A DNA stretch of 64,000 nucleotides from Acidimicrobiales bacterium (GCA_049437325.1 JBMTIM010000007.1:10818-74817), one strand, 5' to 3'. Counted from the first letter of the stretch, positions 20,676-39,863 are shown. Program-made: numbers and translations. Notes: generated by a model from the letters alone, not told the origin.

Positions 20676-21153
20676 ACCCGTTGGCCGTGAGATCGAGGCC
20701 CTCGATCCCCGTCCTCGGGTGCATCTCCTCGTAGGTGCGGCTGTAGCCGGTATGGCTGAGCTTCCAACCATCCGCCGTCTTGACATAGCGATCCTCGTAG
20801 AACGCCGCGCCGCGAAGGTTCACACCGAAGTCGGTGATGATCACCTGATCTTCGAGCTTCCACACCCCCGTTGCGGTCCCGTCGGCGAACACATCGATCT
20901 CGGGATGGTGACAGGCGTGGCTCGACAGAAACTCCGGCCGTCCCATGTTCTCGCGGAGAAAGGCGACGATTGCCGCAAGGTCGTCGAAGCTGTACGTACC
21001 ATCGGAATAGGCCGCCGTGCAGTCATCGGTCATGACCGAGGAGAGCTCGTCGAACCGATGTTGATCGAGCAGGCGAAGGTACCCGTACTTGCAGCGCTTG
21101 ATCAGCTCGATCTCGACGAGGAGTTCCGGTGTGACTGGCAAGGGCTCGTGCAT
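20668..21153 (-). CDS. SnoaL-like / NTF2-fold protein
   Basis: 161 aa. It resembles SnoaL-like polyketide-cyclase-fold proteins and is the last gene of the P450 operon. Confidence 0.6.
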   Translation of the reverse strand: MHEPLPVTPELLVEIELIKRCKYGYLRLLDQHRFDELSSVMTDDCTAAYSDGTYSFDDLAAIVAFLRENMGRPEFLSSHACHHPEIDVFADGTATGVWKLEDQVIITDFGVNLRGAAFYEDRYVKTADGWKLSHTGYSRTYEEMHPRTGIEGLDLTANGFS

Positions 21154-21167
21154 GGGACCATGCTGGC

Positions 21168-22415: not shown

Positions 22416-22421
22416 ACGGTG

Positions 22422-22898
22422 TCAGGCCAAGAGGTCCCCGAGTTGCCCGGCGATCTCTTCCGGAGAGACGGTCGGACCGAACCGTTGGACGACCTCGCCG
22501 GCAGCGTTCACCAGAAACTTCTCGAAGTTCCATGCAATGTCGGACGTCTCGCCATCACCGGGCTGCTCGGCCTTGAGCCACGTGTAGAGCTCGGCGGCAT
22601 TGTCACCGTTGACATCGATTTTCGCGAACATCGGAAAGTCGACACCGAAGTTCTCGGTGACAAAGACCCGAATCTCCTCGGCCGATCCCGGCTCCTGACC
22701 ACCGAACTGATTGCACGGGAAGGCCAAGACTCGGACGCCGTTGTCATCATGATGAAGCGCACGCAGACCTGCGTACTGAGGCGCGAGGCCTCAAGCGGAC
22801 GCGACGTTGACGACGAGGCAGGCGGCATCGGCGAAATCGGAGAACGAGACCTGTTCACCTTCCAGCGATGCCATTTCGAATGCATGAAATCGGCTCAT
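22422..22898 (-). CDS. gpx: Glutathione peroxidase with an in-frame UGA at the catalytic position (probable selenocysteine enzyme)
   Basis: Hand translation from the ATG at 22898 gives MSRFHAFEMASLEGEQVSFSDFADAACLVVNVASA-TGA-GLAPQYAGLRALHHDDNGVRVLAFPCNQFGGQEPGS. This joins track ORF 22422..22727 in frame. The TGA (22791-22793) aligns with the Cys of the NVASxCGxTPQY motif. The full length is 158 codons, as in typical bacterial GPx. Confidence 0.8.
22757..22793 (-). promoter_or_regulatory. Candidate bacterial SECIS element directly 3' of the gpx UGA
   Basis: The mRNA reads UGA GGC CUC GCG CCU CAG UAC GCA GGU CUG CGU GCG C. It forms an ACGCA/UGCGU stem with a GGUC apical loop. The GCAGGUCUGC core (22763-22772) is identical to the apical part of the E. 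coli fdhF SECIS as I recall it. Confidence 0.65.
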
Positions 22899-22973
22899 GC
22901 GGCGGCAGCGTACCGGCCAACAACGCCTGTCGGCGTCGACCCTCCCACCGATCACCGACGATCACACCCCCGA

Positions 22974-23351
22974 TCACTCGGTCGATGGTGCTGCCCAGTC
23001 GGGATCGTCGAAGCGCTGGATCTCCACGAGATGCCCATCCGGGTCTCGCAGAAAGGCATGGGTGATCCCGAAACGATCGTTGTGGGCAACTGGACGTTCG
23101 AACACCAGCCCGGCAGCGACCAACGCAGCACAGTACGACTCGACGTCGTCTCGGACGAGCGTCACGATGAGCCCCGGTGCCCCCACCGGCCGGTCACTCA
23201 CACAGATACCGAGAAAGCCTGATTCGCTCACCTGGTAGATCCGGCACGATCCTTGGTCGACCACCAGCACCAACCCGAGACAGCCTTCGTAGAAGGCAGC
23301 CGACTCGTCGAGGTCGGTCACCGACAGAAACGTCACGAACGCATCGTTCAT
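22974..23351 (-). CDS. VOC/glyoxalase/bleomycin-resistance-family protein
   Basis: Track ORF 22974..24032, trimmed to the ATG at 23351 (MNDAFVTFLSVTDLDESAAFYEGCLGL...). 125 aa. Confidence 0.7.
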   Translation of the reverse strand: MNDAFVTFLSVTDLDESAAFYEGCLGLVLVVDQGSCRIYQVSESGFLGICVSDRPVGAPGLIVTLVRDDVESYCAALVAAGLVFERPVAHNDRFGITHAFLRDPDGHLVEIQRFDDPDWAAPSTE

Positions 23352-23477
23352 CGTGGCGAACCGTAGCCGGTCGGTTGGGTCTTCCGAGGCGCCCCGTTCC
23401 TCCGACCGTTCCGCCGCCGGTACCCTTACGGTTGCTGGGTTCCCGATCCGCGCTGAGCGGTCGCAGAGGTCGTTGCA

Positions 23478-26400
23478 TTGGATGCCGTTTCGAGCGCTGG
23501 TCACAGTGGTGGACCCCAGTCGGCCGGCACCGCTGGTTCGGTGCCGGTTCCGGTCGCCGTCGGCCCTCGCCGTGAGGCGGTGCACGAACCGACCCGCACG
23601 CAGCGGCTGATCTGGGCGAGTCAGCGTCGCTATGACGGGATCCCACTGGCCAACATGGGAGAGCGGGTGCGTATCCGCGGACCGCTCGACCCTCGTCGTT
23701 TCGTGGCGGCGTTCGATGCAGTCGTCCGAACGGTGGACGTGCTGCGTTCGGTCGTGGAACCCGACGGGTCGCGTATCGGCGTTCTGGCAGCACCCCCGGC
23801 CCAAACGCTCGTACTCGACGTGCCGATCGACGAACTCGAGGAATGGTCGGCCGAACGGATCGCGCAACCCATCGATGCAACCACCTGCGTGTACGACTCT
23901 GTTCTGCTCCACCATGGCGACGACGACTGGACGTGGTGGCTCGACATTCACCACATCGCCATCGATGCGTGGGGGGCAGCACGACTCGCCGAGGCCGTCT
24001 CGACCGCCTACCGCCACGACGGAGCTCCCCACGACGCTGATCTGGACAACGTCGTAACGGGATCATTCTTCGACTCGGTCGGCCCCGACGACGAGGCGGG
24101 CCCAACTCGAGCGGCAGAGTGGGCACAGGACGCACAGACAGCCGGACCGCAAGCCCCACTCACCCCGTACGGACCTCGAGGTGAGAGAACGACACGGGTC
24201 GATCGTTGCCCACTCCCCAGAGACGGCTGGCACGAGTCTCTGGATGAGGCGCTGCAAGGTCCGTACCGGGCCCTTTCTCCAGAACTCAGCCTTCTGGCCC
24301 TGTCGGCAATGGCAACAACGATTGCGATGCGACGGTTCGACGGCCGGTCGAGTGTGGTGGTCGGTGTCCCGGTCCATCATCGATCGGGCCGCTCCGGGAG
24401 CACGGCGATCGGGCCGATGATGGAGCTCTACCCGATGGTCGTCACCTTCGACGACAACGAGACCCATCGGGAGATGTTTGCTCGCACGGTCCGGTCGGTG
24501 ATGCAGGTCTTGCGAAGGGCTCGCCCGGGAGAGAGTCCCGACACGCCGTTCGAGATCGTGTTGAACGTCACCACAGCCCGGTGGGACACCTTCGCCGGCT
24601 ATCCGGCCCGGCGTGACTGGGTGCGATCGGGTCACGTCGAGCCGAACCACGCCATCCGCGTGCAGGTCTTCGACGAATTCGATCCATCGGTCGAGGGTGA
24701 CCACGTCTTGCGTTGGGAGCTGGACCTCAACCGCAGTCTTTCGATCGACGGTTCACACCGTGCCCTGCCGCGGCACTTCGCTGCGATCCTGCAGGGGATC
24801 CTCGACCCGCCTGCCGATCAGGCCGGTCGGACGGCTGTTGTCGACAACCACGAGCGGAAGGATCTTGCGGCGCTCAACCCACGACCGCTGGTTCGCAGCG
24901 TCGATCGCCCGGTCCATGACGTGATTCGTGAGCGCCTGACCGACACCCCCGACGACATCGTGGTCGAACACGGTGCCGTCACCATCACCGGGTCTGAGTT
25001 CGATCGACGAGCCGACGCACTTGCCCACCGACTCGTCGCCGACGGGCTTCGCCTCGGAGATCCGGTCGGACTGCGCATGGGGCGAAGCATCGAGGTCCTG
25101 ATCGCTGTCCACGGAGTGCTGCGAGCCGGTGGGCGGTTCGTGTTTCTCGACCCTGCAGACCCGGTCGGTCGGCACGAGACGATTGCCGCCGATGCGGGTC
25201 TGTTCACGATTCTCGATCGCCTCCCGTCCGAGGCGGCCACCGATTCAGACACCACCGACGCTCCCGGCCTCCCGACGGTCAACCTCGACGACGGGGCATA
25301 CATCCTGTACACGTCGGGCTCGACCGGGCTGCCGAAAGGGGTGCCGATCTCTCATCGGGGACTCGCCGACTACCTCGACTTCGCGGTCGAGTCGTACTGC
25401 GACCCGGCGAACCCTCCGTGGGTGGCACTGCACTCGGCACTCGTGTTCGACCTGTCCATCACCAGTGTTTTCCTTTCGATGCTGACCGGTGGTCGAACGG
25501 TCGTCTTCGACACCGATCCGGTCGAGGCGCTCGGCCAGATCAGTCGAGATCCCCGAATCACGTTCCTGAAGGGCACGCCGTCACAGCTCGAGATCCTCAC
25601 CCGCGTGGCGGATGGCCCACTGTCGATCGACACCTTCGTCGTGGGCGGAGAAGCGTTCCGACGCCCTGTGGCAGACCGGGTCCGTGTCCAATGTGCTGGA
25701 ACGGTCCGGATCTTCAACGAGTACGGCCCCACCGAAGCGGTGGTCGGCTGCATGATCCATGAGTACGACCCTGCGAGCGACATCGGTGTCGACGTTCCGA
25801 TCGGGCATGCTGCGCCAGGTAGCCGTCTCGTCGTCCTCGACGCGCTGGGTGAGGTTGCACCACCGGGCGTCTGGGGCGAACTCTTCGTGCACCGCCCCGG
25901 GATGGCGACCGGCTATCTCAACCGTCCGGAGCTGAGCCTCGAGCGGTTCGGGCCGCCGCCTGTCACCGACGACGATCGACTGGTGCTCGGCGACGACGAG
26001 ACCCTCCTTCATTCCACGGTCTGGTATCGCACCGGCGACCGCGTCCGAGTGGAACGTCTCGGTGTACTCGTGTACGGCGGCCGAGAGGACGACCAACTCA
26101 AGGTCAACGGCATCCGACTCGAGCCGGCCGAAGTCGAAGCCGCTCTGGTCTCCCATCCGGGGATCGACAACGCACTGGTGCGGGTGTGGCAGCCCACCGA
26201 CGCGGCCAACCGCATCGGTGTTCGACGGTGTGCACAGTGCGGTCTCGGTGTCGACGTCCCCGGGGTGGACATCGACGCCCTCGGTGTGTGCTCCGTGTGT
26301 CGGCAGTTCGAAGAAGTCGAACCACAGACGAGAGATTGGTTCCGAACCCCCGCCGACCTCGACGACCGCCTACGAACGGCTCGCGAGCGACGCACCGGGG

Positions 26401-29400
26401 ACTACGACTGCCTGCACCTGCTGTCGGGGGGGAAGGACTCGACCTATGCCCTGTATCAACTCGTCGAGCGGGGCTGGCAGGTCCACGCCCTGACCCTCGA
26501 CAACGGGTTCATCTCCGAGGGCGCGAAAGAAAACGTTCGACGGAGCATCGCCGACCTGGGGATCACCCACGAGTTCGTAACGACCGACGCAATGAACGCC
26601 ATCTTCGCCGACAGCCTCGATCGCTACTCCAACGTCTGCCAAGGTTGCTACAAGACGATCTACACCCTCGCCGTTGCCCGAGCCGAAGCGCTTGGCATCC
26701 CGGTGATCGTCACCGGCCTGTCGCGCGGGCAGTTCTTCGAAACCCGACTCGTCCCCCACCAATTCGAAGCGGGCCGTTTCGATCCCGCCGCCATCGACGC
26801 CACCGTGCTCGAGGCTCGACGGGTGTACCACGCAACCCACGATGCCGTGACCGAACTGTTGCCGGAGCAACGCGTCTTCGACGACCCGACCGTGCTCGAC
26901 CGCCTCGAGTTCCTGGACTTCTACCGCTACGTCGACGTGCCCTTGCACGAGCTCTACGACTTCCTCGAGCACCGTGCTCCATGGGTCCGGCCAGCCGACA
27001 CAGGACGATCGACGAACTGTCTCATCAACGTGGCCGGTATCCGAGTCCACCAGCAAGAGCGCGGCTACCACAACTACGCCGAGCCCTACAGCTGGGACGT
27101 CAGACTCGGCCACAAGACCCGCGACGAAGCCCTCGAGGAACTCGACGATCTCATCGATGAGACCGAGGTCACCGCCATTCTCGGGGAGATCGGATACGAA
27201 CCGAAGACGCAAGGCGTCCTGACCGCGTGGTACCAAAGCGTCGACGGCGTCGATCTCGACCCTGACGAACTTCGCCGATCGCTGCGCGACCGGCTGCCGG
27301 CCCACGCCATTCCCTCTGCATTCGTGCGGCTCGACGAGGTACCACTCGCTGCGAGCGCCAAAGCAGACCCCGATCTTCTTCCCGCCCCGACCCGCTTCCA
27401 CCGTCGAGGTGGAGCCGGTGTGCGGCCCGAGACCCCGACCGAGGAACGGCTCGTCACCATCTGGGGCGAGCTTCTCGGACTCGACTCGGTCGGGATCACC
27501 GACGACTTCTTCGACCTCGGGGGCGCCTCACTCGACGCCCTCGCTGTCGTCGCCCGAATCGACGCCGCGTTCGGCACGGATCTCCCCGACGCTGCGGTGT
27601 TCCGAGCCCGGACGATCGCAGAACTTGCCGCCATCGTGGATGGTGCCGAAGCGATCGATGCCCCGACACCTGTCGACCTACCCGACGGCCCGCTCCCCCT
27701 CTCCCCCGGAGAGGAGTACATGCTCTTCGAGTACCGGACCGACCCGATCAATCCCCGGTACAACGTCACCCGGCTCTACACCCTCGAAGGTCACGACGAG
27801 CCGATCGACATCGAGCAGCTCGAAACCGCACTTCGCGATGTGGTCATGCACCACGAAACCCTGCACACCTGTTTCGACCGCAACCGCACAACCCTCGACC
27901 GCACGACTGCCCTGCGCTTCGTCGACCTCGGCGCAGTGCGCCACGACGAACTCGACGACTGGTCGACCCGAATCCAGCGCGAACCATTCGACCTCGACGC
28001 CGGACCGCTGGTGCGGGCCCACGTCGGTGATCTCGGGGACGGGCGCGTTGCACTCTTCCTCGGCATGCATCACATCGTTCTCGGATCAGGCACGTTCGAC
28101 ACGTTCTGGAGCCAGATCACCCGCCGCGTGGCAGGGGAGGCCCTCCCCGACCTCCCGGTCAGCTACGCCCACCACAGCTTGCAGCAGCGGCGCCGGCACA
28201 CCGAAGACGACACCAGTGCACGATTCTGGGCCGACAGCTTCGGCGAGGCCGAAGCGGCATCGCTCCGGCTCGCCGTCGACGACACCGAACCCGACGGGTA
28301 CCTCGTCGCCTCGTCATCGGTCACTGTTGCGGAGATGAACGCCGTGGGGCGCACGGCGTTCTCGACCGCCCTGGCATCGGCCGGCATCGTCGTGTCGACG
28401 TTCTCCGGGTCGGGACAGGTCCAGATCGGGATCACAGCGTCGTCGAACGATCGCCCCGACACCGCCGAGGTAATCGGCTACTACCTGAACCCGATCGCAC
28501 TCTCGCTCTCGGTCGAGGCCAACGACACGTTCACCGACTTGGTCGGTCAGGCTGCCGACACGATGGAGGCGGCACTACCGCACCGGACGTACCCCTTCGC
28601 CTGGGTCGTTCGCGACGCCCGCGACGCCGGCCGCCCCGTACCCGACGTGTCGGTGATGCTTGCCTACGAGCGCATCGACCAGCCGACCTATCCGGGTGCA
28701 ACCGCCGAGCAACGGATCCTCGCCACCGGCTCGTCGGTCGCCGATGTCACCTTCTTCGTCCAAGAGCGCGGGGACGACATCCGCCTGGCCCTCGAGTACC
28801 GCGGTTCGGTCGTGAGCGAGCAGGCTGCCGAGCGACTGCTCGCCGCCTTCCGGACCACGCTGGAAGACGGTGTCCGGAATCCGACCAGGCACATCGCCCA
28901 CCTCACCGAACCCCATCGGGGAGATGATCTCGATGGGCCAGCGCTCGACGACACCGCACTGGTGCTGGAACGCCTGATCGGCCACATCGACACGACTCCG
29001 ACTGCAGCTGCAGTGGCGGACGCGACCGGCCGTGTACTCGACTACCGCAGTCTCGGGCGAGCCGTCGATGCCACAGCGGCCGCAGTGATCACAGCGCTCG
29101 ACGGCGTGCAACCGAAGAGGGTCGGTGTGGCGGTGGCCCGATCGATCGAGATGGTCGTCGGACTCTACGGAGCTCAGGTCGCCGGAGGTGCCGCCGTCCC
29201 GCTCGATCCAACCCTGCCCGACACCCGTCTCGCTGCCATCGCCAACGCAGCCGAGCTCGATGTCGTCATCACCGACGATCCGGACCGCCACCGTCGGTGG
29301 GCACCGCACACCGTGGCCGTTGCTGGTCCGACCGAAGGTGATACGGCCTCACTGGTCGAGCGGGTGCGCACGATCGACGGATCCGACGACAGTTACGTGA

Positions 29401-31496
29401 TCTTCACGTCGGGTTCGACGGGCGAGCCTCGCGGTGTTGCGGTGACCCACGCCAACCTGGCTGCGAGCACGGCGGCACGGGATGTCTGGTTCGACGGACG
29501 TCCGGATCGTTTCCTGGTCACCTCGAGTCCGGGATTCGACAGTTCAGTCGTCGGCCTCTACTGGCCTCTCGCCACCGGCGGCACCGTGGTCGTGCCCGGC
29601 GACGACGACGTGCGCAACGTCGATCGCCTCGGATCACTGATCGAGTCGCTCGACATCACCCACACGCTGATGGTGCCGAGCCTTGCCAGCGCTCTGCTCG
29701 AACGAGCGCCGACCGCCGTCGCCGGACTCACGGTGGCCATCGTGGCCGGCGAAGCATGTCCACCGGCAGTGGTCGAACGCCATCACGAAATCGCTCCAGC
29801 TGTTGCCCTCATCAACGAGTACGGTCCCACCGAGGCCACGGTCTGGTCGACGGTGCATCGACTCACCCACGGGGACGACCCCGTCCCGATCGGGCGCCCG
29901 ATTCCAGGTGCCACGGCCCGCGTCGTCGGTGCCGACGGCTCCGCGTCACCGGCGGAGGTGGCGGGTGAGTTGTGGATTGCGGGTCCCGGTGTGACGGCCG
30001 GGTACCTGAACGACCCGGACGCCACCGCAGAGCGATTCGTGGAGGCCGACGGTCGCCGGTGGTACCGCACCGGCGACCTCGTGCGCGCGGTCGGCGGCGT
30101 GCTTCGCTTCCTCGGACGGGTCGATGATCAGCTCAATGTGGGTGGCGTTCGACTCGAACCGGCCGAGGTCGAACGATTGCTCGACACCATCGACGGCATC
30201 ACCGCATCAGTGGTCGTCGCCGTCGGCGAGCCGCCCCTCTTGGTCGCCCACCTCGAGACGGATGGTCCGATCGAGGAGGCACACCTCCGTGCCCATCTCG
30301 GTGAGCGGCTGCCAGCGACTGCCGTTCCCCGCCGATTCGTCGCCCACCCCTCCCTGCCTCGGACCCAGAACGGCAAACTCGACCGCCATGCCGCCGCCGA
30401 GCTCGCAGTGCCGAGCCCGTCGGCCGCCCCGGAGATCACTGGGGGGACCGCAACCGAGCGAGCGGTGCTCGAAGCCTGGAGCACGGTGCTCGCCCCCACC
30501 CAGATCGACCCTGACACCGACTTCTTCGCGGCCGGGGGAGACTCGCTCACCGCGGTGGCGCTCGTCACCCGAATCGGTGATGCGCTCGGACGCACGATTC
30601 CGATCTCGACCCTGCTCGCCGGCCCATCGCCAACTGCGATGGTTCAACTCCTCGAGGCGGGCGATCGATCGTCGAGACCCTTCACCACCGTGCGAATGCA
30701 GTCCGGTGCACCCGACAGTCCTCTCGTACTCATCACACCCGCCTGGTTCAGCATTTTCGGCTACAGGGACATGGTCGAGGCATTCTCCGCCGACATCGAG
30801 GTCATCGCTCTCGACTACAACCCCGAGGCCAGCATGGCCCCGATCCTGACGGTCCCTCAGATCGTGACGGCGATGGAACCAGCCCTCGACGACCTTCCCA
30901 GTGGGAAGCGACCGGTGGTGGTGCTGGGCTGGTCGATCGGCGGTGTCGTTGCAGCCGAACTCGCCACCCGACTGCTCGAAGCGGGACGGCCGGTCGATCG
31001 CCTGGTACTCGTCGACACCATCTTCCCGACCGTCGACCGGGCACAGTGGTCGGTGCGGTGGTCGTATCGATGGTGGACGGCCAAGTCGTTGCTTCGCCCG
31101 GAGGGCGTGGCTGAACTACGCGAAGAAGTGTGGAGGTTCATCCGGCGACGGTTACCCACACCGATCGATCGAGCGATCCGGTGGGTGACTCGGGAGGCGT
31201 CGACGACGCCCGACGACGCAGCGCCCGCGGCCCCCGCACAGGCCGCGGTCGTCGCTGCGCCCGTGGGAGAGGTTCCCGAACAGGCGAACTACTTCGAGCC
31301 TCGACCACTCGAACTGCCGGTCACCTTCTATCGTGCATCCGGATCGAATCCAGGACACACCAGCAAGCTGTGGCGCACCATCACACCTGACTTTGACGAG
31401 GTCGTCGTCAAAGGGAGGCACAGGACTGTCAATTCGATCATGGATGCGGGTCGGGTCGGTCAGATCACCGCCGACATCGAACGACGGCTGCGCTGA
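23478..31496 (+). CDS. Non-ribosomal peptide synthetase, two modules: C-A(interrupted)-T-C-A-T-TE
   Basis: 2672 aa. C1: HHIAIDAWG (from 23949). A1: YILYTSGSTGLPKGV (25299), FNEYGPTEA, YRTGDRVRV, GREDDQLKVNGIRLEPAEVE, then the insert, then LPAHAIPSAF (A9) and PLAASAKAD (A10 Lys). T1: DLGGASLDAL (Ser codon 27528). C2: MHHIVLGSG (28065). A2: YVIFTSGSTGEPRGV (29394), INEYGPTEA, YRTGDLVR, LPRTQNGKLDR. T2: AAGGDSLTAV (Ser codon 30543). TE: GWSIGG (Ser codon 30933). The TTG start at 23478 is uncertain; in-frame GTGs lie downstream. Confidence 0.95.
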   Translation: MDAVSSAGHSGGPQSAGTAGSVPVPVAVGPRREAVHEPTRTQRLIWASQRRYDGIPLANMGERVRIRGPLDPRRFVAAFDAVVRTVDVLRSVVEPDGSRIGVLAAPPAQTLVLDVPIDELEEWSAERIAQPIDATTCVYDSVLLHHGDDDWTWWLDIHHIAIDAWGAARLAEAVSTAYRHDGAPHDADLDNVVTGSFFDSVGPDDEAGPTRAAEWAQDAQTAGPQAPLTPYGPRGERTTRVDRCPLPRDGWHESLDEALQGPYRALSPELSLLALSAMATTIAMRRFDGRSSVVVGVPVHHRSGRSGSTAIGPMMELYPMVVTFDDNETHREMFARTVRSVMQVLRRARPGESPDTPFEIVLNVTTARWDTFAGYPARRDWVRSGHVEPNHAIRVQVFDEFDPSVEGDHVLRWELDLNRSLSIDGSHRALPRHFAAILQGILDPPADQAGRTAVVDNHERKDLAALNPRPLVRSVDRPVHDVIRERLTDTPDDIVVEHGAVTITGSEFDRRADALAHRLVADGLRLGDPVGLRMGRSIEVLIAVHGVLRAGGRFVFLDPADPVGRHETIAADAGLFTILDRLPSEAATDSDTTDAPGLPTVNLDDGAYILYTSGSTGLPKGVPISHRGLADYLDFAVESYCDPANPPWVALHSALVFDLSITSVFLSMLTGGRTVVFDTDPVEALGQISRDPRITFLKGTPSQLEILTRVADGPLSIDTFVVGGEAFRRPVADRVRVQCAGTVRIFNEYGPTEAVVGCMIHEYDPASDIGVDVPIGHAAPGSRLVVLDALGEVAPPGVWGELFVHRPGMATGYLNRPELSLERFGPPPVTDDDRLVLGDDETLLHSTVWYRTGDRVRVERLGVLVYGGREDDQLKVNGIRLEPAEVEAALVSHPGIDNALVRVWQPTDAANRIGVRRCAQCGLGVDVPGVDIDALGVCSVCRQFEEVEPQTRDWFRTPADLDDRLRTARERRTGDYDCLHLLSGGKDSTYALYQLVERGWQVHALTLDNGFISEGAKENVRRSIADLGITHEFVTTDAMNAIFADSLDRYSNVCQGCYKTIYTLAVARAEALGIPVIVTGLSRGQFFETRLVPHQFEAGRFDPAAIDATVLEARRVYHATHDAVTELLPEQRVFDDPTVLDRLEFLDFYRYVDVPLHELYDFLEHRAPWVRPADTGRSTNCLINVAGIRVHQQERGYHNYAEPYSWDVRLGHKTRDEALEELDDLIDETEVTAILGEIGYEPKTQGVLTAWYQSVDGVDLDPDELRRSLRDRLPAHAIPSAFVRLDEVPLAASAKADPDLLPAPTRFHRRGGAGVRPETPTEERLVTIWGELLGLDSVGITDDFFDLGGASLDALAVVARIDAAFGTDLPDAAVFRARTIAELAAIVDGAEAIDAPTPVDLPDGPLPLSPGEEYMLFEYRTDPINPRYNVTRLYTLEGHDEPIDIEQLETALRDVVMHHETLHTCFDRNRTTLDRTTALRFVDLGAVRHDELDDWSTRIQREPFDLDAGPLVRAHVGDLGDGRVALFLGMHHIVLGSGTFDTFWSQITRRVAGEALPDLPVSYAHHSLQQRRRHTEDDTSARFWADSFGEAEAASLRLAVDDTEPDGYLVASSSVTVAEMNAVGRTAFSTALASAGIVVSTFSGSGQVQIGITASSNDRPDTAEVIGYYLNPIALSLSVEANDTFTDLVGQAADTMEAALPHRTYPFAWVVRDARDAGRPVPDVSVMLAYERIDQPTYPGATAEQRILATGSSVADVTFFVQERGDDIRLALEYRGSVVSEQAAERLLAAFRTTLEDGVRNPTRHIAHLTEPHRGDDLDGPALDDTALVLERLIGHIDTTPTAAAVADATGRVLDYRSLGRAVDATAAAVITALDGVQPKRVGVAVARSIEMVVGLYGAQVAGGAAVPLDPTLPDTRLAAIANAAELDVVITDDPDRHRRWAPHTVAVAGPTEGDTASLVERVRTIDGSDDSYVIFTSGSTGEPRGVAVTHANLAASTAARDVWFDGRPDRFLVTSSPGFDSSVVGLYWPLATGGTVVVPGDDDVRNVDRLGSLIESLDITHTLMVPSLASALLERAPTAVAGLTVAIVAGEACPPAVVERHHEIAPAVALINEYGPTEATVWSTVHRLTHGDDPVPIGRPIPGATARVVGADGSASPAEVAGELWIAGPGVTAGYLNDPDATAERFVEADGRRWYRTGDLVRAVGGVLRFLGRVDDQLNVGGVRLEPAEVERLLDTIDGITASVVVAVGEPPLLVAHLETDGPIEEAHLRAHLGERLPATAVPRRFVAHPSLPRTQNGKLDRHAAAELAVPSPSAAPEITGGTATERAVLEAWSTVLAPTQIDPDTDFFAAGGDSLTAVALVTRIGDALGRTIPISTLLAGPSPTAMVQLLEAGDRSSRPFTTVRMQSGAPDSPLVLITPAWFSIFGYRDMVEAFSADIEVIALDYNPEASMAPILTVPQIVTAMEPALDDLPSGKRPVVVLGWSIGGVVAAELATRLLEAGRPVDRLVLVDTIFPTVDRAQWSVRWSYRWWTAKSLLRPEGVAELREEVWRFIRRRLPTPIDRAIRWVTREASTTPDDAAPAAPAQAAVVAAPVGEVPEQANYFEPRPLELPVTFYRASGSNPGHTSKLWRTITPDFDEVVVKGRHRTVNSIMDAGRVGQITADIERRLR
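26220..27273 (+). other. PP-loop ATP-pyrophosphatase / amidotransferase-like domain embedded in NRPS adenylation domain 1
   Basis: Zinc-ribbon CAQCGLGVDVPGVDIDALGVCSVCRQF, then DYDCLHLLSGGKDSTYALYQLVERGWQVHALTLDNGF (SGGxDS PP-loop; Ser codon at 26424), CQGCYKT and a C-terminal WDVRLGHKTRDEALEEL. The pattern matches my recollection of the WbpG/PseA-type N-acetyl-sugar amidotransferase family. Confidence 0.7.
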
Positions 31497-31497
31497 A

Positions 31498-31767
31498 TCA
31501 GTCGAGCGAGGTGTCGCTGCGAGCCCGCAAATAGGTGACCATCGACGCGACCATGTCGAAATGCTCGATGACGATGTCGCCGGGGTCGATCGTGATGTCG
31601 AGCCGCGATTCGATCCATTCGACGACGAGCACGATGCCGAGTGAGTCGACGAGCCCGGTCAGGACGAGATCGGTGTCGGCCTCGAGCGGATGGTCACCGA
31701 TGGCCACCTCGGCGCGGATGAACGCAACCAATTCCTCGGAGAACGCTCGGTGATCAACGCTCGACAT
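31498..31767 (-). CDS. Free-standing acyl/peptidyl carrier protein
   Basis: Track ORF trimmed to the ATG at 31767. 89 aa; the GLVDSLGIVLVVEWIE phosphopantetheine-attachment motif is present. It lies 10 nt downstream of the adenylation gene. Confidence 0.75.
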   Translation of the reverse strand: MSSVDHRAFSEELVAFIRAEVAIGDHPLEADTDLVLTGLVDSLGIVLVVEWIESRLDITIDPGDIVIEHFDMVASMVTYLRARSDTSLD

Positions 31768-31777
31768 CGGGCGCAGA

Positions 31778-33370
31778 CTACCGGTCGGTCCCGTGGTCTC
31801 CTCGGTCATCCCCCACGCCGACCGCACGACCGACCGACCGCCTGTCGACCTTGCCGGTTCCTGTCCGCGGCAAGTCGTCGAGACCGACGACGCGGGACGG
31901 CACGGCATAGCGCGGGAGCGTCGCAGCAAGCTGACGGATCAGGTCGGCGTCACGGCCGTCCACCGTCGCAGCCTCCGGCGACACGACGGCGACGAGATGG
32001 TCGTCACCGCTCGCAGGGCGGTCGACCAGCACTGCGGCAGCATCGATCCCGTCGATGTCGAGGAGGGCTGCCTCGACCGCCTCGACCTCGACGCGGTGTC
32101 CACGAACCTTGACCTGATTGTCGACACGACCCACGAAGACGAGGTTCCCATCGGACCGCTCCGCAATCAGATCGCCCGTGCGGTACCAACGTCGGCCATC
32201 CTCTTCTGCAATGGACCGTGCATCGAGATCCGGGCGGTTCCAGTACCCGCGCATCATGGTGTCGGAACTGACCAGCAATTCTCCGGGTTCACCCGGGGCC
32301 ACCGGCCCGCCCGTCTCGTCGACCAACCGAAGTACAGCGCCGCTCCACGCTCGCCCGATCGGAATCGGGGCATCGTCCGTCGGTGGGGTGTCGAGGTTGT
32401 AGACGGTGCACTGATTGACCTCGGCCGGGCCGTAGATGTTCGAAACGCGAGCGGACGGAATGGCTCGCATGGCCCGAGCAAGCGCCGCTGGAGGGAACGG
32501 TTCACCCCCGTACAGAATCCAACGCAAGCTCTCGAGATCGTGATCCTCGATTGCGCCACGGGCAACCATCTGGTCGATGACGTACGGCACCGAGTACCAC
32601 ACGGTGATGCGCTCGTCTGCAATGAGCTTCGCCAAACTCGCCGGGAATCGCAGCACACCGTCGGGCACCACCAGGACTGACGCACCGACGAGCGGTGCTG
32701 CGTACAGCTCGAAGGTGGACTGATCGAAATGCAGCGGAGCGATGTTGGCGAGCCGGTCACTCGAGTCGATGGTGTAGGTCTCCGCTGCAAGCCGTGCATA
32801 GGTGAGGCCACTGCGGTGGGTGTGGGCCATGCCCTTCGGCGTGCCGGTGGAACCGGACGTGTACATGAGGTAGGCGAGATCGTCAGGATCGACACCCGGC
32901 CGTGGTGCCGGTTCGAGCCCGGCCAGACGGTCAGCTCCGACCGTCGACGAACCGGGACCCGAAACACTGTCGGCCAGCGGCGTGACCACGCCGGTGACCG
33001 ATGTTCCCGCCATGATCGCCACAAGCACATCTCCCGATGCAGCGGTGACGAGCGCCGACGCGCCGGCATCACGCAGTACCGCGTTGGTCGCCGCCACAGG
33101 TGCGAGCGCATCGAGGGGCACCATGACAGCACCGGCACGCAGCACACCATGAACCGATGCGAACGAGTGCACCGACTTGTGCAGATGGACTCCCACCCGG
33201 TCGCCGGGCTTCACTCCCGATCGCAAGAGCGCAGTCGCGATTCGACCAGCGAGATCGCGGTACTCGCCCCAGCTCAGACGGCTCCGACCGTCGGTGATCG
33301 CTTCGGTGTCCGCACCGGCGATCGTGACTGCTGTGTCGAGCAGGTCGTCGAGCGTCTCGATTTCGGTCAC
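31778..33370 (-). CDS. Free-standing adenylation enzyme (amino acid--carrier protein ligase, DltA-like architecture)
   Basis: 530 aa with a GTG start. Motifs: YLMYTSGSTGTPKGM, NIYGPAEV, YRTGDLI, GRVDNQVKVRGHRVEVEAVE and LPRTGTGKVDRR. Confidence 0.9.
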   Translation of the reverse strand: MTEIETLDDLLDTAVTIAGADTEAITDGRSRLSWGEYRDLAGRIATALLRSGVKPGDRVGVHLHKSVHSFASVHGVLRAGAVMVPLDALAPVAATNAVLRDAGASALVTAASGDVLVAIMAGTSVTGVVTPLADSVSGPGSSTVGADRLAGLEPAPRPGVDPDDLAYLMYTSGSTGTPKGMAHTHRSGLTYARLAAETYTIDSSDRLANIAPLHFDQSTFELYAAPLVGASVLVVPDGVLRFPASLAKLIADERITVWYSVPYVIDQMVARGAIEDHDLESLRWILYGGEPFPPAALARAMRAIPSARVSNIYGPAEVNQCTVYNLDTPPTDDAPIPIGRAWSGAVLRLVDETGGPVAPGEPGELLVSSDTMMRGYWNRPDLDARSIAEEDGRRWYRTGDLIAERSDGNLVFVGRVDNQVKVRGHRVEVEAVEAALLDIDGIDAAAVLVDRPASGDDHLVAVVSPEAATVDGRDADLIRQLAATLPRYAVPSRVVGLDDLPRTGTGKVDRRSVGRAVGVGDDRGDHGTDR

Positions 33371-33412
33371 CGGGTGCCGAGGCCTTTCTGGTCGGTCGCT
33401 ACGCTTTCCTCG

Positions 33413-34402
33413 ATGTCTACCCGATCCGACCCCGATGTGTCGCTGACCGCGAACGGCTTCGACGTCGATCGATCAGCCGGTCGATTGGGTGAACTCGAGC
33501 CGGCCAACGACCTGCTCGGTGATCCTCGAGCGCTTCGGGCAACGATGCAGGAACGCGGCTACCTGTTCTTTCGCGAGCTGATCGACCCGAAGATCGTGAG
33601 CGAGGCCCGCCTCGAGGTACTCGGCAAGTACGCCGTGCTCGGCGAGATCGACGATCGCCACCCGATCGAAGACGGCATTGCGGGGGATGGGGAGGCTGTG
33701 CCCGCAGTCAACCTCCGCGCATTTTCGGAGAGCATCCGCTCTGGGTACTGGTACCGGCGGGTCACCGACGGGCCGGAGGTCCTCGGAGTTGCAGGAGATC
33801 TGCTCGACGGTGTCGTCCAGATCTTCGCCATGCGATGGCCCCGGTTCGTCCGGCCCGGAGAGGGCTGTGGCTTTCACTGTGACGGCCCGTACATGAATCG
33901 AGGGACCGACCGCATTTTCTCCGCCTGGATCCCACTCGGCGACGTCACGCCGACGGAGGGCGCATTGATGGTGCTCGAGAACAGTCATCGCTCCGAGCGA
34001 CTGCTCTCGGGGTACCTTCGGGCCGATGCTGACCGCGATGGGCTGCAGTGGCTCGACGACGATCCCGTATCGGTGCAGGAACAGTACGGGGACCGATGGC
34101 TGACCACCGATTTCGAGGCAGGCGACGTCCTGTTCTTCGGCATGCACACACTGCATGGAGCGTTCGACAACCGGTCACCGGTGGGCCGATGCAGGCTTTC
34201 CTCGGACACTCGGTACCAGCGAGCCGACGAGCCGGCCGATCCGCGCTGGAACGGCGCTGACTTCGAGGGACACGGCGGAAGCCGCGTGTTCTATCCAGGC
34301 CTGGGCCGATGGAACAACGCCGACTTCCAAGACGAATGGAAGGATGTCGACGACCGAGGGCGCATCGTCCTGCGAGAGGAGACGGATCGTGACCGAAACT
34401 GA
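33413..34402 (+). CDS. Phytanoyl-CoA dioxygenase (PhyH)-family Fe(II)/2OG oxygenase
   Basis: Track ORF 32729..34402, trimmed to the ATG at 33413 (MSTRSDPDVSL...). It contains GFHCDG (HxD) and a distal HTLHGA. Confidence 0.7.
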   Translation: MSTRSDPDVSLTANGFDVDRSAGRLGELEPANDLLGDPRALRATMQERGYLFFRELIDPKIVSEARLEVLGKYAVLGEIDDRHPIEDGIAGDGEAVPAVNLRAFSESIRSGYWYRRVTDGPEVLGVAGDLLDGVVQIFAMRWPRFVRPGEGCGFHCDGPYMNRGTDRIFSAWIPLGDVTPTEGALMVLENSHRSERLLSGYLRADADRDGLQWLDDDPVSVQEQYGDRWLTTDFEAGDVLFFGMHTLHGAFDNRSPVGRCRLSSDTRYQRADEPADPRWNGADFEGHGGSRVFYPGLGRWNNADFQDEWKDVDDRGRIVLREETDRDRN

Positions 34403-35573
34403 CGCCGAACTCCTCGCCCTCGCCCGTGCGATGACCGACCTCGACCACCCGCTGAAGCGTGAGGCCGCGGACTGGGCAGCTGCCGAACTGGGTCAGGCCG
34501 ACCTCGTCGATGCCGATCATCGGTCCGTATTCGCGATCGACGACTGGCGGCGCTGTGCCGATCGCGGCATCCATCGTCTGATGGTTCCCGAGGAACACGG
34601 TGGCCTCGGAGCCGATCGGGCCACGACACTGCTCACCCTCGAGGGCCTCGGCTACGGCTGCAACGACAATGGGCTCACCTTTGCGCTTGCGAGCCAGATC
34701 GTGAGCTCACAGGTGACCCTCGTGCGATTCGCCACCGACGAACAGCGCGAACGCTGGCTGCCAGGGCTTCTGGACGGATCGATGTTCGCCGCACTGGCGA
34801 TGACCGAACCCGGCTCGGGTTCGGACGCGTTCTCCCTGCAAGCCACGGCAGCGAAGCAGGCTGACGGGACGTACCTGCTGAACGGTCACAAGGCCTATCT
34901 GACCTTCGGACCCGTTGCGGATCTGTGCATTGCCTTTGCGTCGACCCGCCCGGAGGCCGGAAGTTGGGGTGTTTCGGCGTTCCTCGTTCCCATGGATCTC
35001 CCCGGTGTCGTCCAGGGTCCGTTGCGCGAGAAGATGGGCATGCGCACCACCCCCTTCGGTGACATCGAATTTCGCGATGTGGTCCTCCCAGCCGACGCCC
35101 TGCTGAGTCGCGAGGGGGCCGGCGCAAGCATCTTCAGCGCGGTCCTCGACATCGAACGGGCCTACGTGTTCGCTCCGCAGATCGGCGCGATGGAACGGCA
35201 ACTGCACGACGCCACGGCGTACGCCCTCGAGCGCGAGCAGGGTGGTCAACCCATCGCCCGCTACCAGGCGGTCTCTCACCGCCTTGTCGCCATGAAAGAG
35301 CGGCATGAGCACTGCCGGTTGCTGCTCTACCGGGCGGCGATGGCCGACGTCACAGGCCGAGGAATGTCGCTCGCTGCCTCTCTGGCCAAAATCGCAACCG
35401 CTGACGCCGGAATCGCCTCGTCGATCGATGCCGCCCTGCTCCACGGCGCGAAAGGGTACGTTTCGGAGTTCGAGATCGAACGCCAGCTCCGTGATGCCGT
35501 CGGCGGGTTGGTCTACTCAGGCACCACCGACGTGCTGCGCAACATCGTCGCTCGGCACCTCGGCGTCGTCTGA
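34389..35573 (+). CDS. Acyl-CoA dehydrogenase-family flavoenzyme (probably acting on an acyl/aminoacyl-S-carrier protein)
   Basis: The GTG at 34389 overlaps the PhyH stop. 394 aa. Motifs: AMTEPGSGSD, LNGHKAYLT and a C-terminal VYSGTTDVLRN in place of the canonical YEGT. Confidence 0.85.
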   Translation: MTETDAELLALARAMTDLDHPLKREAADWAAAELGQADLVDADHRSVFAIDDWRRCADRGIHRLMVPEEHGGLGADRATTLLTLEGLGYGCNDNGLTFALASQIVSSQVTLVRFATDEQRERWLPGLLDGSMFAALAMTEPGSGSDAFSLQATAAKQADGTYLLNGHKAYLTFGPVADLCIAFASTRPEAGSWGVSAFLVPMDLPGVVQGPLREKMGMRTTPFGDIEFRDVVLPADALLSREGAGASIFSAVLDIERAYVFAPQIGAMERQLHDATAYALEREQGGQPIARYQAVSHRLVAMKERHEHCRLLLYRAAMADVTGRGMSLAASLAKIATADAGIASSIDAALLHGAKGYVSEFEIERQLRDAVGGLVYSGTTDVLRNIVARHLGVV

Positions 35574-36896
35574 TCCTGCGGGTACCCCCACCGGCAGCAA
35601 CCCGTCGCGTTCGACAGCGATCTGCCGAACTGCGGCAGCGATACCCGTGAAGACCATCGCCACCCAGAACGAGCGAGGCCAGTAGACGACCTTGAGGATG
35701 ATGTCGTTGATGCCTGCATCAACCTCGAACACTCGCTCCACCACCCAGACGCCACTCAACGCAGCGAGTCCCAGCGAACTGATCACCAGAATCGGTCGAT
35801 ACAGCCGGGTCTGGCGGAGCATGAAGAGACCCGGGAACGCAATGGCGATGATGACGAGTTGTCCGATCTCGATACCCACGTTTCGCCCGAGCAGGGAGAC
35901 CAACTGCGTGCCTCGGCCGATGTCGAGTTCCTGTACGAGCCCGGCGAAGCCCATACCGTGAAAGAGCCCGAACCCGAAGGCGAGCGCCCATTCACGATGC
36001 CCGAGCACCGGGCGAAGGTTGTGGAGTGCTGCTGCACCGATCGACAGCGCGATCAGCGTCTCCACCAACTGGGAGGGCGGCAGCGGGATGAGGTCGAGCC
36101 CGGCGAGCGTGAACGTGATCGAGTGGGCGATCGTGAACATCGTGGCCACCAGCACAAGTCGCCCGAGTGAGTAGGTGAAGCTCGGTGACGGGCTCCAGAT
36201 CGAGCCCGTGAGGAGCAGCACCGAGGTCAGCAGCAGCACGAGGATGAAGAAGATGTGGTCCGGACCGGTCTTGATGTGGTCGATACCGAGGTCGATGCTG
36301 TACCGGAAGTTGCGCCACTGGTTGGTCTCACCGAAGTCGATTTCGCCACCCGGTCGTTCTGCGGTGACGATCAGGAGTTCGTTGGCCTCCTCTTCGACGA
36401 TCCCTCTCTTCCAGTCGTTGGACACCAGCACGATGTTGTTGCGGCCCGGAATCTCGTCGAGAAACGGCGCGAAGACGGTCTCCACCACCTGTGGGACTGC
36501 GTCGAGCGGCATGGCGACGGTGAACGGCAGGATCACATAGCCGTTGCCGTTCACCCCAACCCCCTCCTCGTCGAGGAGTTCGAACCCGTCGAAGGTCAGC
36601 TCCCACACCTCGCCGTCGGCCCCGATCGCGCTCTTGTCCGTTGCGTACCGCTGGAGACGGTCGAGATTGGCCTCGACCTCGGCACTGATGTCGGCGACCG
36701 AACCCGACAGACGCAGGCCGAACACCGTACGAATATCGGGGTAGGGCATCTCGACGCGGCCACTCAGGGAGGAGTCACCGACATCCATGTAGAGATACGA
36801 CTCGTCGTTGCGGTGCGCACCTGCCGGAGAGGCGGACGACACCACAATGGTGACGGCAGCCGCCGCCCCGATGAGGACCCGCACAAACCGCAACAC
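35517..36896 (-). CDS. HupE/UreJ-family membrane protein with an N-terminal secreted domain
   Basis: Signal peptide MLRFVRVLIGAAAAVTIVVSSASPAGA. HupE signature GIDHIKTGPDHIFFIL and FGLFHGMGFAG. TTG start preceded by GGGAGG. Confidence 0.7.
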   Translation of the reverse strand: MLRFVRVLIGAAAAVTIVVSSASPAGAHRNDESYLYMDVGDSSLSGRVEMPYPDIRTVFGLRLSGSVADISAEVEANLDRLQRYATDKSAIGADGEVWELTFDGFELLDEEGVGVNGNGYVILPFTVAMPLDAVPQVVETVFAPFLDEIPGRNNIVLVSNDWKRGIVEEEANELLIVTAERPGGEIDFGETNQWRNFRYSIDLGIDHIKTGPDHIFFILVLLLTSVLLLTGSIWSPSPSFTYSLGRLVLVATMFTIAHSITFTLAGLDLIPLPPSQLVETLIALSIGAAALHNLRPVLGHREWALAFGFGLFHGMGFAGLVQELDIGRGTQLVSLLGRNVGIEIGQLVIIAIAFPGLFMLRQTRLYRPILVISSLGLAALSGVWVVERVFEVDAGINDIILKVVYWPRSFWVAMVFTGIAAAVRQIAVERDGLLPVGVPAGSDDAEVPSDDVAQHVGGA

Positions 36897-37045: not shown

Positions 37046-38080
37046 CTATGCCTTGGTTCGCGTCGCCGACCAGTGCGACAGCGCACCAGTTGGTTGGAAT
37101 CGCTCAGGGCGGTCCTCTGCGGCGAGCGTGTCGGTGGCGAGCCACAAGCGTTTGAGCCAACGCACCTGACCGTGCTCGGGATCATCCTCGTACTCCCGAC
37201 GGCCGTGCAAGACGTGATAGTTGTTCACGAACTGCATGTCACCCGGCTGGAACCGCATCTCGACCCAGTGCTCGGGATCGTCCACGAGCGCCGAGTACGC
37301 CTTCATCGCAGCCAACTGCATTTCGGTGAGGCGGGGTGTCGTGTCGTGCCGCTGGGAGGCCAGGACGAACTGCGGGATGTAGCGGATGAACAGACGATCA
37401 CCATGCCGGGTGAACGCAGGAACGTGATAGTAGGGCCTCCCTCCGTCCGGCTGCTCACCCCGATAGTCGTAGGGCAGTCCCTCGTAGAGCACAGCGGCCA
37501 GTTCGGGATCCGACTCGGCCAACAGGTTGTGGCAGAGCAGGGCATTGGAGATGAGGCTCTCGCCACCGGCGATGCCGGGATCGAGACACAGCAGACCGAC
37601 CAGATCGGAACCGTCGGAGTGGAATCCGAGCGCCGAACCACCCATCTCGTACCCGCGGATGTTCGGGTCGTCGGGGGACTTGCCGGCATCTTTGACGTCA
37701 CCGAGCAGGTGACCGCGGGCGTTCTGGGCCCACGGGATACCGAGGTGCATGCCGATTCCCCAGTAGATCCACGACGCATCGTCGAAGCCGAGACGATCGA
37801 CCGGGAGCCCGCAGATGCGATGGAAGCCCCGTCCGTTGATCAGTTCGTCGGCCATCTCGTCGAGCACCGACGCAAACGTCGGAAGCGGAAAGTGCTCCGC
37901 TCCCACGTCGAGCACTTCGTCGGTTGCCGCGCGTGCGAACGCCAAGGCCGCCTCGAGTTCGGCGATCTCGGTGTCGGTCAGGTGATGCGTCCACATCGAA
38001 GCATCGGCGACATCGGCGGCACGCCATTCGGCATGACGCTCGAGCGGTTCCACACGGTCGGGGGTCATGGTGGCGATCAT
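37046..38080 (-). CDS. TauD/TfdA-family Fe(II)/2OG dioxygenase
   Basis: 344 aa with an LGFHSDGSD (HxD) motif. ATGA overlap with the upstream aminoacylase gene. Confidence 0.75.
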   Translation of the reverse strand: MIATMTPDRVEPLERHAEWRAADVADASMWTHHLTDTEIAELEAALAFARAATDEVLDVGAEHFPLPTFASVLDEMADELINGRGFHRICGLPVDRLGFDDASWIYWGIGMHLGIPWAQNARGHLLGDVKDAGKSPDDPNIRGYEMGGSALGFHSDGSDLVGLLCLDPGIAGGESLISNALLCHNLLAESDPELAAVLYEGLPYDYRGEQPDGGRPYYHVPAFTRHGDRLFIRYIPQFVLASQRHDTTPRLTEMQLAAMKAYSALVDDPEHWVEMRFQPGDMQFVNNYHVLHGRREYEDDPEHGQVRWLKRLWLATDTLAAEDRPERFQPTGALSHWSATRTKA

Positions 38081-39813: not shown

Positions 39814-39863
39814 ACCTCCATGATGCCGCTTGCTAGGTCTCGGCGTCACGTTCGTGGCAACCT

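Follow-up and report, generated by a model that had tools for sequence, protein, structure and literature searches.

Type II prolyl cassettes are represented by PltF/PltL/PltE of pyoluteorin biosynthesis, RedM/RedO/RedW and PigI/PigG/PigA of the prodiginine pathways and AnaC/AnaD/AnaB of anatoxin-a biosynthesis, and in the hormaomycin system (HrmK/L/M) a pyrrolyl carrier feeds the first condensation (C) domain of a modular non-ribosomal peptide synthetase (NRPS). A locus comparable with these systems is located on a 64,000 nt stretch of DNA (hereafter the window; G+C content: 65%) of the Acidimicrobiales bacterium GCA_049437325.1 (JBMTIM010000007.1:10818-74817), an uncultured actinobacterium of marine type, where it was first described at positions 23478-35573. 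It combines a bimodular NRPS, the first adenylation (A) domain of which harbors an embedded aminomutase/amide dehydratase (AMDH) domain, with a stand-alone A enzyme, a free carrier protein (CP), a PhyH-family dioxygenase and a flavoprotein of the acyl-CoA dehydrogenase (ACAD) family, while a permease gene belonging to the same conserved set lies outside these limits. We consider it probable that the locus forms one biosynthetic unit, which assembles a tripeptide of the order starter-Asn*-His, where Asn* is a putatively modified asparagine, on three carriers.

The AMDH domain of CysH and AlbIV dehydrates carrier-bound L-Asn to β-cyano-L-alanine and, following the β-hydroxylation of Asn by CysJ, isomerises the residue to isoasparagine (Gross et al. 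2021; PMC7966384). Albicidin and the cystobactamids, which inhibit topoisomerases, are the only products of AMDH chemistry that have been characterised. All BLAST homologues of the domain occur within A domains with an Asn code, and none of them could be assigned a known product (PMC7966384). Anglerases, in turn, are mono-histidine-brace domains fused to HupE/UreJ-2 permeases (PMC12537917; 9GCE). Ang domains bind Cu2+ at ~60-74 nM and Ang-1 also binds Ni2+ at 220 nM, as measured for RbAng-1a and MmAng-2a; the Ang-2 type is restricted to the Actinomycetota, and no NRPS is mentioned among the gene neighbors of anglerases in that study (PMC12537917). Every part of the present locus belongs to a known family, be it the proline-style type II cassette, the module for AMDH-modified Asn, the His module or the permease of the anglerase type. 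No description was found in the literature of their combination, of an in-line AMDH module, of a loader with such an altered pocket and a PhyH partner, or of the product. The cluster is a genuine, conserved orphan NRPS cluster of known parts, with the following features:

23478..31496, plus strand: NRPS gene, 2672 aa from a TTG start (open reading frame, Pfam and NCBIfam domains; motifs HHIAIDAW, SGGKDS, GGASL, GGDSL and GWSIGG)
23598..24857, plus strand: C1, N-terminal condensation domain with HHIAIDAW (PF00668; e-value: 1.3e-17; residues 41-350)
24915..27377, plus strand: A1, interrupted adenylation domain, code DLTKVGEVGK (predicted Asn), A10 Lys present (SAKAD)
~26229-27212, plus strand: AMDH insert in A1, zinc ribbon and PP-loop ATPase, ~330 aa
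27435..27647 (approximate limits), plus strand: T1, carrier domain with FDLGGASL (PP-binding, two stretches)
27696..28904, plus strand: C2, condensation domain with HHIVLGSG (PF00668; residues 1407-1809)
28989..30377, plus strand: A2, adenylation domain, code DSVLIAEVWK (predicted His), read from the sequence
30462..30653, plus strand: T2, carrier domain with FAAGGDSL (PP-binding; residues 2329-2392)
30723..31445, plus strand: thioesterase (TE) domain with GWSIGG (PF00975; residues 2416-2656)
31498..31767, minus strand: free carrier protein gene, convergent with the NRPS gene, 89 aa, Ser in GLVDSLG (PF00550; e-value: 2e-5)
31778..33370, minus strand: stand-alone A enzyme, 530 aa, code DQFYLGIQCK (TIGR01733: 338 bits; PltF, 6o6e: 284 bits)
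33413..34402, plus strand: PhyH-family Fe(II)/2-oxoglutarate dioxygenase, 329 aa (PF05721; triad H155-x-D157...H248)
34389..35573, plus strand: ACAD-family flavoprotein, 394 aa, GTG start (RedW: 325 bits; PigA: 318 bits; 4irn, taken to be AnaB: 284 bits)
35517..36896, minus strand: anglerase-HupE/UreJ-2 permease, 459 aa (PF13795; e-value: 1e-38), outside 23478-35573 but part of the conserved set

Every gene call is backed by Pfam or NCBIfam (AMP-binding, e-value: 9e-123; Condensation, e-value: 1e-54; PP-binding; Thioesterase; PhyH, e-value: 6e-15; and three Acyl-CoA_dh domains), and the gene positions are as claimed in a preliminary description of the locus, with the exception of two details. 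As reported there, the NRPS gene ends 1 nt before the stop codon of the convergent gene for the 89 aa carrier protein (NRPS stop: 31494-31496; carrier-protein stop beginning at 31498), the 530 aa stand-alone A gene is located upstream of the latter with 10 nt between its stop codon and the carrier-protein ATG, and the PhyH gene is divergent from the A gene and overlapped by the ACAD gene. The gap between the A and PhyH genes measures 42 nt. The overlap of PhyH and ACAD had been given as GTGA, a tetranucleotide which does exist (34389-34392), but the TGA within it is not read in the PhyH frame and the real overlap, from the ACAD GTG at 34389 to the PhyH TGA at 34400-34402, spans 14 nt; a PhyH/ACAD overlap of 4 nt occurs in relatives. 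The second detail is the plain C-A-T-C-A-T-TE architecture, of which the domain order stands, but the first A domain is interrupted by a tailoring domain of ~330 aa between A8 and A9/A10, giving the order C1 - A1(AMDH insert) - T1 - C2 - A2 - T2 - TE. The absence of epimerization and methyltransferase domains from the window NRPS had been stated correctly. In a subfamily of NRPS homologues of ~3100 aa (P0089, P0093, P0094, P0096, P0097 and others), the synthetase additionally includes a methyltransferase domain (PF13649/PF08241). As a 98%-identical homologue comprises 2638 aa, compared to 2672 aa for the window protein, the true NRPS start may lie ~34 codons downstream of the TTG at 23478.

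The comparison covers 19 distinct loci with enough flanking DNA, drawn from the window genus, from its order and from a class-wide sample of 301 genomes. The A-domain codes were read by eye at the Stachelhaus positions from motif segments, automated pattern extraction being unreliable at the first positions. The A1 code, DLTK[V/I]GEVGK or a near-variant, recurs across the related loci in which it is readable, and DS[VA]L[IV/M]AEVWK or a near-variant is found in every locus with a readable A2. The window A2 code shares 9/10 positions with DSALIAEVWK, the exact form of which is present at paralogous loci. In a signature survey of 2025, DLTKIGEVGK is assigned to Asn/3-cyanoalanine, and DSALIAEVWK is a His signature, β-hydroxy-His included (PMC12283262). 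The extender residues are thus predicted from the codes to be Asn (A1) and His (A2), while C1, at the N-terminus of the synthetase, is the proposed acceptor of a carrier-bound starter. The NRPS and the cassette together supply three A domains, three carriers, two C domains and one TE, and a collinear tripeptide of the form starter-Asn*-His fits this tally.

The insert in A1 is placed between A8 (GREDDQLKVNGIRLE) and A9/A10 (LPAHAIPSAF ... SAKAD) and shares 47% amino acid identity over 330 aa with the AMDH domain of CysH (BLASTP e-value: 1e-114; CysH sequence from the source data of PMC7966384). The SGGKDS PP-loop, the zinc-ribbon cysteines (CxxC...CxxC) and a CxGC motif are all conserved in the window domain. 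Pfam detects only weak ThiI/QueC similarity in the insert, while the NCBIfam model TIGR03573 (WbuX, N-acetyl-sugar amidotransferase) matches it end-to-end at 93.5 bits, which is under the cut-off. A WbuX-like, amidine- or thioamide-forming domain was the first reading of the insert and was replaced by AMDH after the direct comparison with CysH. On the strength of this comparison the insert is assigned to the published AMDH family, and by analogy it would convert carrier-bound Asn to either β-cyanoalanine or isoasparagine.

Stand-alone proline A enzymes share the consensus L(L/F)YLALVC, of which only positions 236, 301 and 330 contact proline in CcbC (PMC3874040). In the window enzyme (DQFYLGIQCK), positions 239, 278, 299 and 331 (F, Y, L and C) match this consensus (4/8), and across the family the free A codes grade from the canonical DLLYLALVC (locus L044) through DLLYLGVGC and DMLYLGVAC to DQFYLG[IV]QC. 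The best match among stand-alone enzymes in the PDB is the proline ligase PltF (6o6e; Bitscore: 284), and the enzyme is read as a putative proline-type loader with a pocket that has been widened and made polar. The adjacent gene encodes a small free carrier protein with the phosphopantetheine Ser (89 aa; GLVDSLG; PF00550), the PDB matches of which are free peptidyl carrier proteins and chain A of 6cxt, the partner of the ACAD-like 6cxt_B in the same entry.

The top PDB matches of the ACAD flavoprotein are 4irn (284 bits), 6cxt_B (247 bits) and 5zw0 and 6af6 (both ~220 bits), all of which score above ordinary acyl-CoA dehydrogenases. Three of these four best matches (4irn, 5zw0 and 6af6) are labelled as prolyl-carrier-protein dehydrogenases; 4irn, with the PDB label prolyl-ACP dehydrogenase, is presumably AnaB. 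Among the NCBIfam models, RedW (325 bits) and PigA (318 bits) score well above the next ACAD model (221 bits). Furthermore, in the two alignments examined, the flavoprotein has in common with 4irn and 6cxt_B a YSGT motif in place of the YEGT of medium-chain acyl-CoA dehydrogenase (MCAD), lacking the MCAD Glu, and an alternative Glu on the preceding helix (...IERA...). These sequence features identify it as a predicted member of the prolyl-carrier-protein dehydrogenase group. ACAD homologues sharing 43-47% identity are also encoded in three relatives without the AMDH-NRPS (G034:C55:39455-40552, G040:C25:5331-6425 and G029:C2:33566-34696), where they probably belong to other proline-type cassettes.

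The iron triad of the PhyH dioxygenase, H155-x-D157...H248, is invariant in 31 homologues, and because its H-x-D is intact the enzyme is of the hydroxylase type rather than a SyrB2-type halogenase. A SyrB2/KtzD-like halogenase, with the ACAD acting as a KtzA-like cyclopropanase, was discarded as a candidate on the same grounds, the triad being H-x-D and not H-x-A/G. The fold matches PtlH, SnoN and proline hydroxylase H11 at similar levels (model pLDDT: 72) and names no substrate. Conservation of the PhyH protein is unusually high, with 70-75% identity between distant loci, and all seven loci with an adjacent PhyH gene, which possibly form a single clade, have a free A enzyme with Gln at both 236 and 330 (Q/Q pocket). 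PhyH paralogues with 56-58% identity occur away from the cluster in three genomes (G015:C131:7379-8299, G013:C51:4004-4924 and G004:C12:36454-37389); these genomes are of the same genus and have no cluster-adjacent PhyH, and their paralogues are less like the window PhyH than are the orthologs of other families (70-74%). PhyH may act on the starter, as favored by its operon position, or on T1-bound Asn, by analogy with CysJ.

In the proposed pathway, the stand-alone A enzyme would charge the 89 aa carrier protein with an α-amino acid, for which proline or a polar, proline-like derivative is the most likely candidate, and the ACAD would convert the carrier-bound unit by dehydrogenation into either the pyrrolyl-2-carboxyl form made by PltE, RedW and PigA or the pyrroline-carboxyl form made by AnaB, with PhyH, where present, acting as a hydroxylase, probably on the starter. 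C1 would join the starter to Asn on T1, AMDH would turn the carrier-bound Asn into β-cyano-alanine, or into isoasparagine if the Asn were hydroxylated first, and C2 would add His prior to release of the product by the TE. The general scheme of an A, carrier protein and ACAD trio which hands a tethered starter to the N-terminal C domain, for joining to two amino acids and release by the TE, had been put forward in the preliminary description and is supported by the ACAD and PltF matches, the domain tally and the co-conservation of the genes. That reading lacked the modification of the middle residue by AMDH, the Asn and His identities, the non-canonical proline pocket, the optional nature of PhyH and the Cu/Ni permease.

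The ACAD ortholog and the free A gene each adjoin the NRPS in 15 of the 19 loci, and a HupE-like permease gene does so in 12. The linkage of cassette and NRPS persists in loci with as little as ~40% protein identity and through changes of gene order. In most loci the A and carrier-protein genes are located directly upstream of the NRPS in the same direction, and the carrier-protein gene either borders on the NRPS start or overlaps it, such that the C1-encoding end of the NRPS gene directly follows it, and PhyH-ACAD are divergent. In the window genus, the A-CP/PhyH-ACAD block is inverted and lies downstream of the NRPS. A linkage which survives such rearrangement argues for a functional unit, and the co-conservation of the flanking genes with the NRPS, on which the preliminary description had made its reading depend, was borne out. 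Among 41 relatives, the NRPS, the ACAD ortholog (at least 49% identity) and the permease are all found in the same eight genomes. The window genome, which is 95.7% complete, encodes two phosphopantetheinyl transferases, and its only two condensation domains are those of the window NRPS; neither MbtH nor DltD (PF04914) was found in it at this level of completeness. With no DltD found and with scores for the DltA and DltC models that fall far short of the cut-offs, the Dlt-type alternative which had also been raised is rejected. The NRPS family comprises >1100 homologues in metagenomes, nearly all of them from uncultured Acidimicrobiia, and is distributed patchily in genomes (13/301 genomes and 9/136 genera of the class sample).

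Several variants can be observed among these loci. A cluster without a free A enzyme or carrier protein is present in locus L023 (ena contig_11226, 2.05 Mb; 8194-23970), where the NRPS ends in a third C domain and is followed by a methyltransferase, a second synthetase (C-A-T-TE) and an ACAD, with the permease divergent upstream; the A pocket of the second synthetase lacks Asp235, as in pockets of the β-amino-acid type. In L024 and L025 (~3000-5900 and ~17900-20000), two or three methyltransferases and a Cupin_8 (JmjC-like) oxygenase flank the cluster; a ferredoxin-P450 pair is also present in L024, and these flanks represent lineage-specific tailoring sets.

The permease starts with a signal peptide, the predicted cleavage of which would leave a His residue at the N-terminus, and continues with an N-terminal domain of ~170 residues and a PF13795 membrane domain. 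A27 and H28 (His1) are invariant in 36 homologues with 53-90% identity, as is an H-x5-D-H motif in the membrane domain. The best PDB fold match of its AlphaFold2 model (pLDDT: 79.8) is 9GCE, the Cu-bound Ang-1 domain of RbAng-1a (e-value: 1.1e-4; TM-score on target: 0.59; amino acid identity: 16%), which was not matched by sequence search, and the next fold matches are the zinc-binding proteins PA4063 and ZrgA. From this model and the analogy with anglerases, the permease is predicted to be a Cu/Ni uptake protein. Its gene is convergent with the ACAD gene, and the two share 57 nt at their 3′ ends (35517-35573); the C-terminal 18 residues of the permease are unconserved and modelled with low confidence. 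A permease ortholog in G004 (C52:20508-21872) contains one in-frame TGA, for which sequencing error, a pseudogene and recoding are all possible.

An X-X-His order is that of the amino-terminal Cu(II)- and Ni(II)-binding (ATCUN) site, H2N-X-X-His, which forms 5-5-6 chelate rings with Cu(II) and Ni(II), and peptide metallophores are known in methanobactin, the diisonitrile chalkophores and staphylopine. The X-X-His form of the predicted product, taken together with the strict co-occurrence of the NRPS with the putative Cu/Ni permease, suggests a Cu(II)/Ni(II)-binding peptide, possibly an ATCUN-like chelator. The product might, on a tentative view that we place clearly below an even chance, be a (hydroxy)pyrrole-/pyrroline-carboxyl-(cyanoalanine/isoasparagine)-histidine tripeptide acting as an ATCUN mimic. 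That such a mimic captures Cu(II)/Ni(II) extracellularly and passes the metal or the complex to the permease is conceivable, and is put forward with the same reserve.

Several observations count against this reconstruction, and they concern the condensation step, the starter, the hydroxylase and the metal in turn. In the C2 motif of the window lineage (HHIVLGSG; 28065-28091), Gly replaces the Asp of HHxxxDG. This is seen only in the window and in the relatives G012 and G004, and since HHxxxD is kept in the other relatives, the substitution is specific to this lineage and of recent date, in a gene which is intact otherwise; the T-domain (GGASL, GGDSL) and TE (GWSIGG) motifs are apparently intact. 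All three proline-contacting positions of the free A enzyme are changed (L>Q, A>G and V>Q at 236, 301 and 330), for which reason proline itself may not be its substrate. Furthermore, the top PDB match of this enzyme is an in-line LgrA domain, which ranks above PltF, and the ACAD reaches about half of the equivalog cut-offs (RedW: 325 vs 650; PigA: 318 vs 500). Such features would be expected if the starter were not derived from proline, with the free A enzyme, which has Gln residues at formerly hydrophobic contacts and Gly at 301, loading another polar α-amino acid and the ACAD producing an α,β-dehydro or, once hydrolysed, an α-keto acyl starter. We regard this as unlikely, as the scaffold positions of the code fit the proline consensus and the codes of sister loci grade from DLLYLALVC through DLLYLGVGC to DQFYLGVQC, while three of the four best structural relatives of the ACAD bear the prolyl-carrier label and the carrier protein matches 6cxt_A, which was solved together with the ACAD-like 6cxt_B. 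The PhyH gene is adjacent to the cluster in only 7/19 loci, and the same-genus locus L015 has a Q/Q code but no orthologous PhyH, only a 58%-identical paralogue on another contig; a strict correlation, in which PhyH makes the substrate of the Q/Q pocket, is weakened by this locus. PhyH could instead hydroxylate T1-bound Asn, in the role of CysJ/AlbVIII though with a different fold, and thereby switch AMDH from nitrile formation to isoasparagine. A trans-acting 2-oxoglutarate hydroxylase sets the AMDH outcome in the cystobactamid pathway, the PhyH gene can be absent from a locus, as might be expected of a tailoring switch, and its high conservation between distant loci agrees with such a part. 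However, the PhyH gene always overlaps the ACAD gene and is divergent from the A-CP pair and not from the NRPS, all seven PhyH-linked loci have the polar pocket in the free A enzyme, and CysJ is itself SyrP-like (TauD family) and not a PhyH protein, so that action on Asn seems rather improbable next to the preferred hydroxylation of the starter. The possibility that the A, carrier-protein, ACAD and PhyH genes are unrelated neighbors, Dlt-like or glycan-decorating, which do not feed the NRPS, is largely refuted and highly improbable. The 43-47% identical ACAD homologues in three relatives without the NRPS could be taken in its favor, but the genes remain adjacent in 15/19 loci despite rearrangements, in most loci the NRPS start touches or overlaps the carrier-protein gene, an ACAD ortholog is present in all eight NRPS-bearing relatives, the genome has neither other C domains nor DltD, and the NRPS-initial C domain would otherwise be without a donor.

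With regard to the metal, a peptide capped with pyrrole would not offer the free amine that stands at the N-terminus of a true ATCUN site, and no metal-responsive riboswitch or regulator was found in the window by an Rfam scan; a promoter and terminator scan yielded nothing useful. The peptide could be an antibiotic, a signal or another metabolite rather than a metallophore, with the permease linked to it in some other way, for instance because a pathway enzyme requires the metal, and we give this serious weight, though somewhat less than an even chance. The topoisomerase-inhibiting activity of the only characterised AMDH products, the lack of a metal-responsive regulatory element in the window and the lack of a siderophore-type exporter or receptor conserved at the loci are all in keeping with such a product. 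It accounts less readily for the permease, which is present in 8/8 of the NRPS-bearing genomes among the 41 relatives, could not be detected at that level in the remaining 33 and is adjacent in 12/19 loci, or for the predicted X-X-His order of an established Cu/Ni site next to a transporter family whose Ang domains bind Cu2+ (~60-74 nM) and, in Ang-1, Ni2+ (220 nM). If the metal-binding reading is true, the cluster would represent an undescribed class of chalkophore or nickelophore in uncultured aquatic Acidimicrobiia and the first physiological partner proposed for anglerases; if it is wrong, a clean and conserved orphan NRPS cluster of known parts is still at hand.

Two additional genes are located beyond the permease gene:

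37046..38080, minus strand: TauD-family dioxygenase (Pfam; closest structures FrbJ and 7n7v)
38077..39951, minus strand: Amidohydro_3 enzyme, D-aminoacylase-like (Pfam), with a 4 nt overlap with the TauD gene

Only in G012 and G010, the two nearest relatives, is this pair kept next to the cluster; both genes are regarded as possible accessory genes and not counted as core. A role for the TauD protein as an analogue of CysJ/SyrP finds no support, as its nearest structures are FrbJ and 7n7v, only the two closest relatives keep the gene and the TauD protein of L025 is not orthologous. On the other side, a minus-strand operon at 20668-23351 (SnoaL_4 and P450) is divergent from the NRPS gene and is shadowed by a spurious plus-strand reading frame of 267 aa (22419..23222). 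The P450/SnoaL operon was rejected as part of the cluster, being present only in the 98%-identical relative and not upstream of the NRPS of G010. The only Rfam match in the window is a single tRNA gene on the minus strand (47643-47716).

The locus offers a compact, three-residue context for reading out AMDH chemistry, given the AMDH homologues without a linked product. Furthermore, the anglerase-HupE/UreJ-2 proteins were described in 2025 without a known source of ligand, and a strictly co-occurring peptide synthetase makes the ligand question testable. The hosts are abundant uncultured Acidimicrobiia, in which Cu/Ni acquisition is essentially unstudied. Like the Ang-1 and Ang-2 permeases, the window permease has a signal peptide, His1, a β-sandwich matching Cu-bound RbAng-1a and a PF13795 membrane domain with H-x5-D-H, but it shares only 16% identity with RbAng-1a and its gene is tied to an NRPS cluster. 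The predicted product resembles an ATCUN peptide in that His would be residue 3, following two amide-linked units and an N-donor ring, and in having a Cu/Ni uptake partner, while it differs in its predicted N-terminal donor, a pyrrole or pyrroline N in place of a free amine, and in its non-ribosomal origin. As in CysH and AlbIV, an AMDH domain with an SGGKD PP-loop and zinc ribbon is embedded in an Asn-code A domain. The latter are, however, stand-alone A-T modules from which the product is shuttled to the assembly line, whereas the window domain is part of an in-line C-A(AMDH)-T module in a bimodular synthetase, and homologues of the SyrP-like CysJ and the CysQ-type O-methyltransferase of the cystobactamid system are not conserved in the window cluster family. 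As in the Plt, Red, Pig and Ana cassettes, the genes for the stand-alone A enzyme and for its small free carrier protein are grouped with an ACAD gene. Shared as well are the active-site signature of the ACAD (4irn, 6cxt_B) and the scaffold half of the A code. The window cassette differs from these in the A contact residues (Q, G and Q), in an ACAD that scores under the equivalog cut-offs, in the overlap of the PhyH and ACAD genes and in the predicted transfer of the starter to an NRPS C domain rather than to a polyketide synthase or an acyltransferase. This last feature is that of the hormaomycin system, in which a type II proline cassette likewise leads to the N-terminal C domain of a modular NRPS, while the window locus represents a much smaller system, without a halogenase, in which the modules downstream of the starter are those for AMDH-modified Asn and His.

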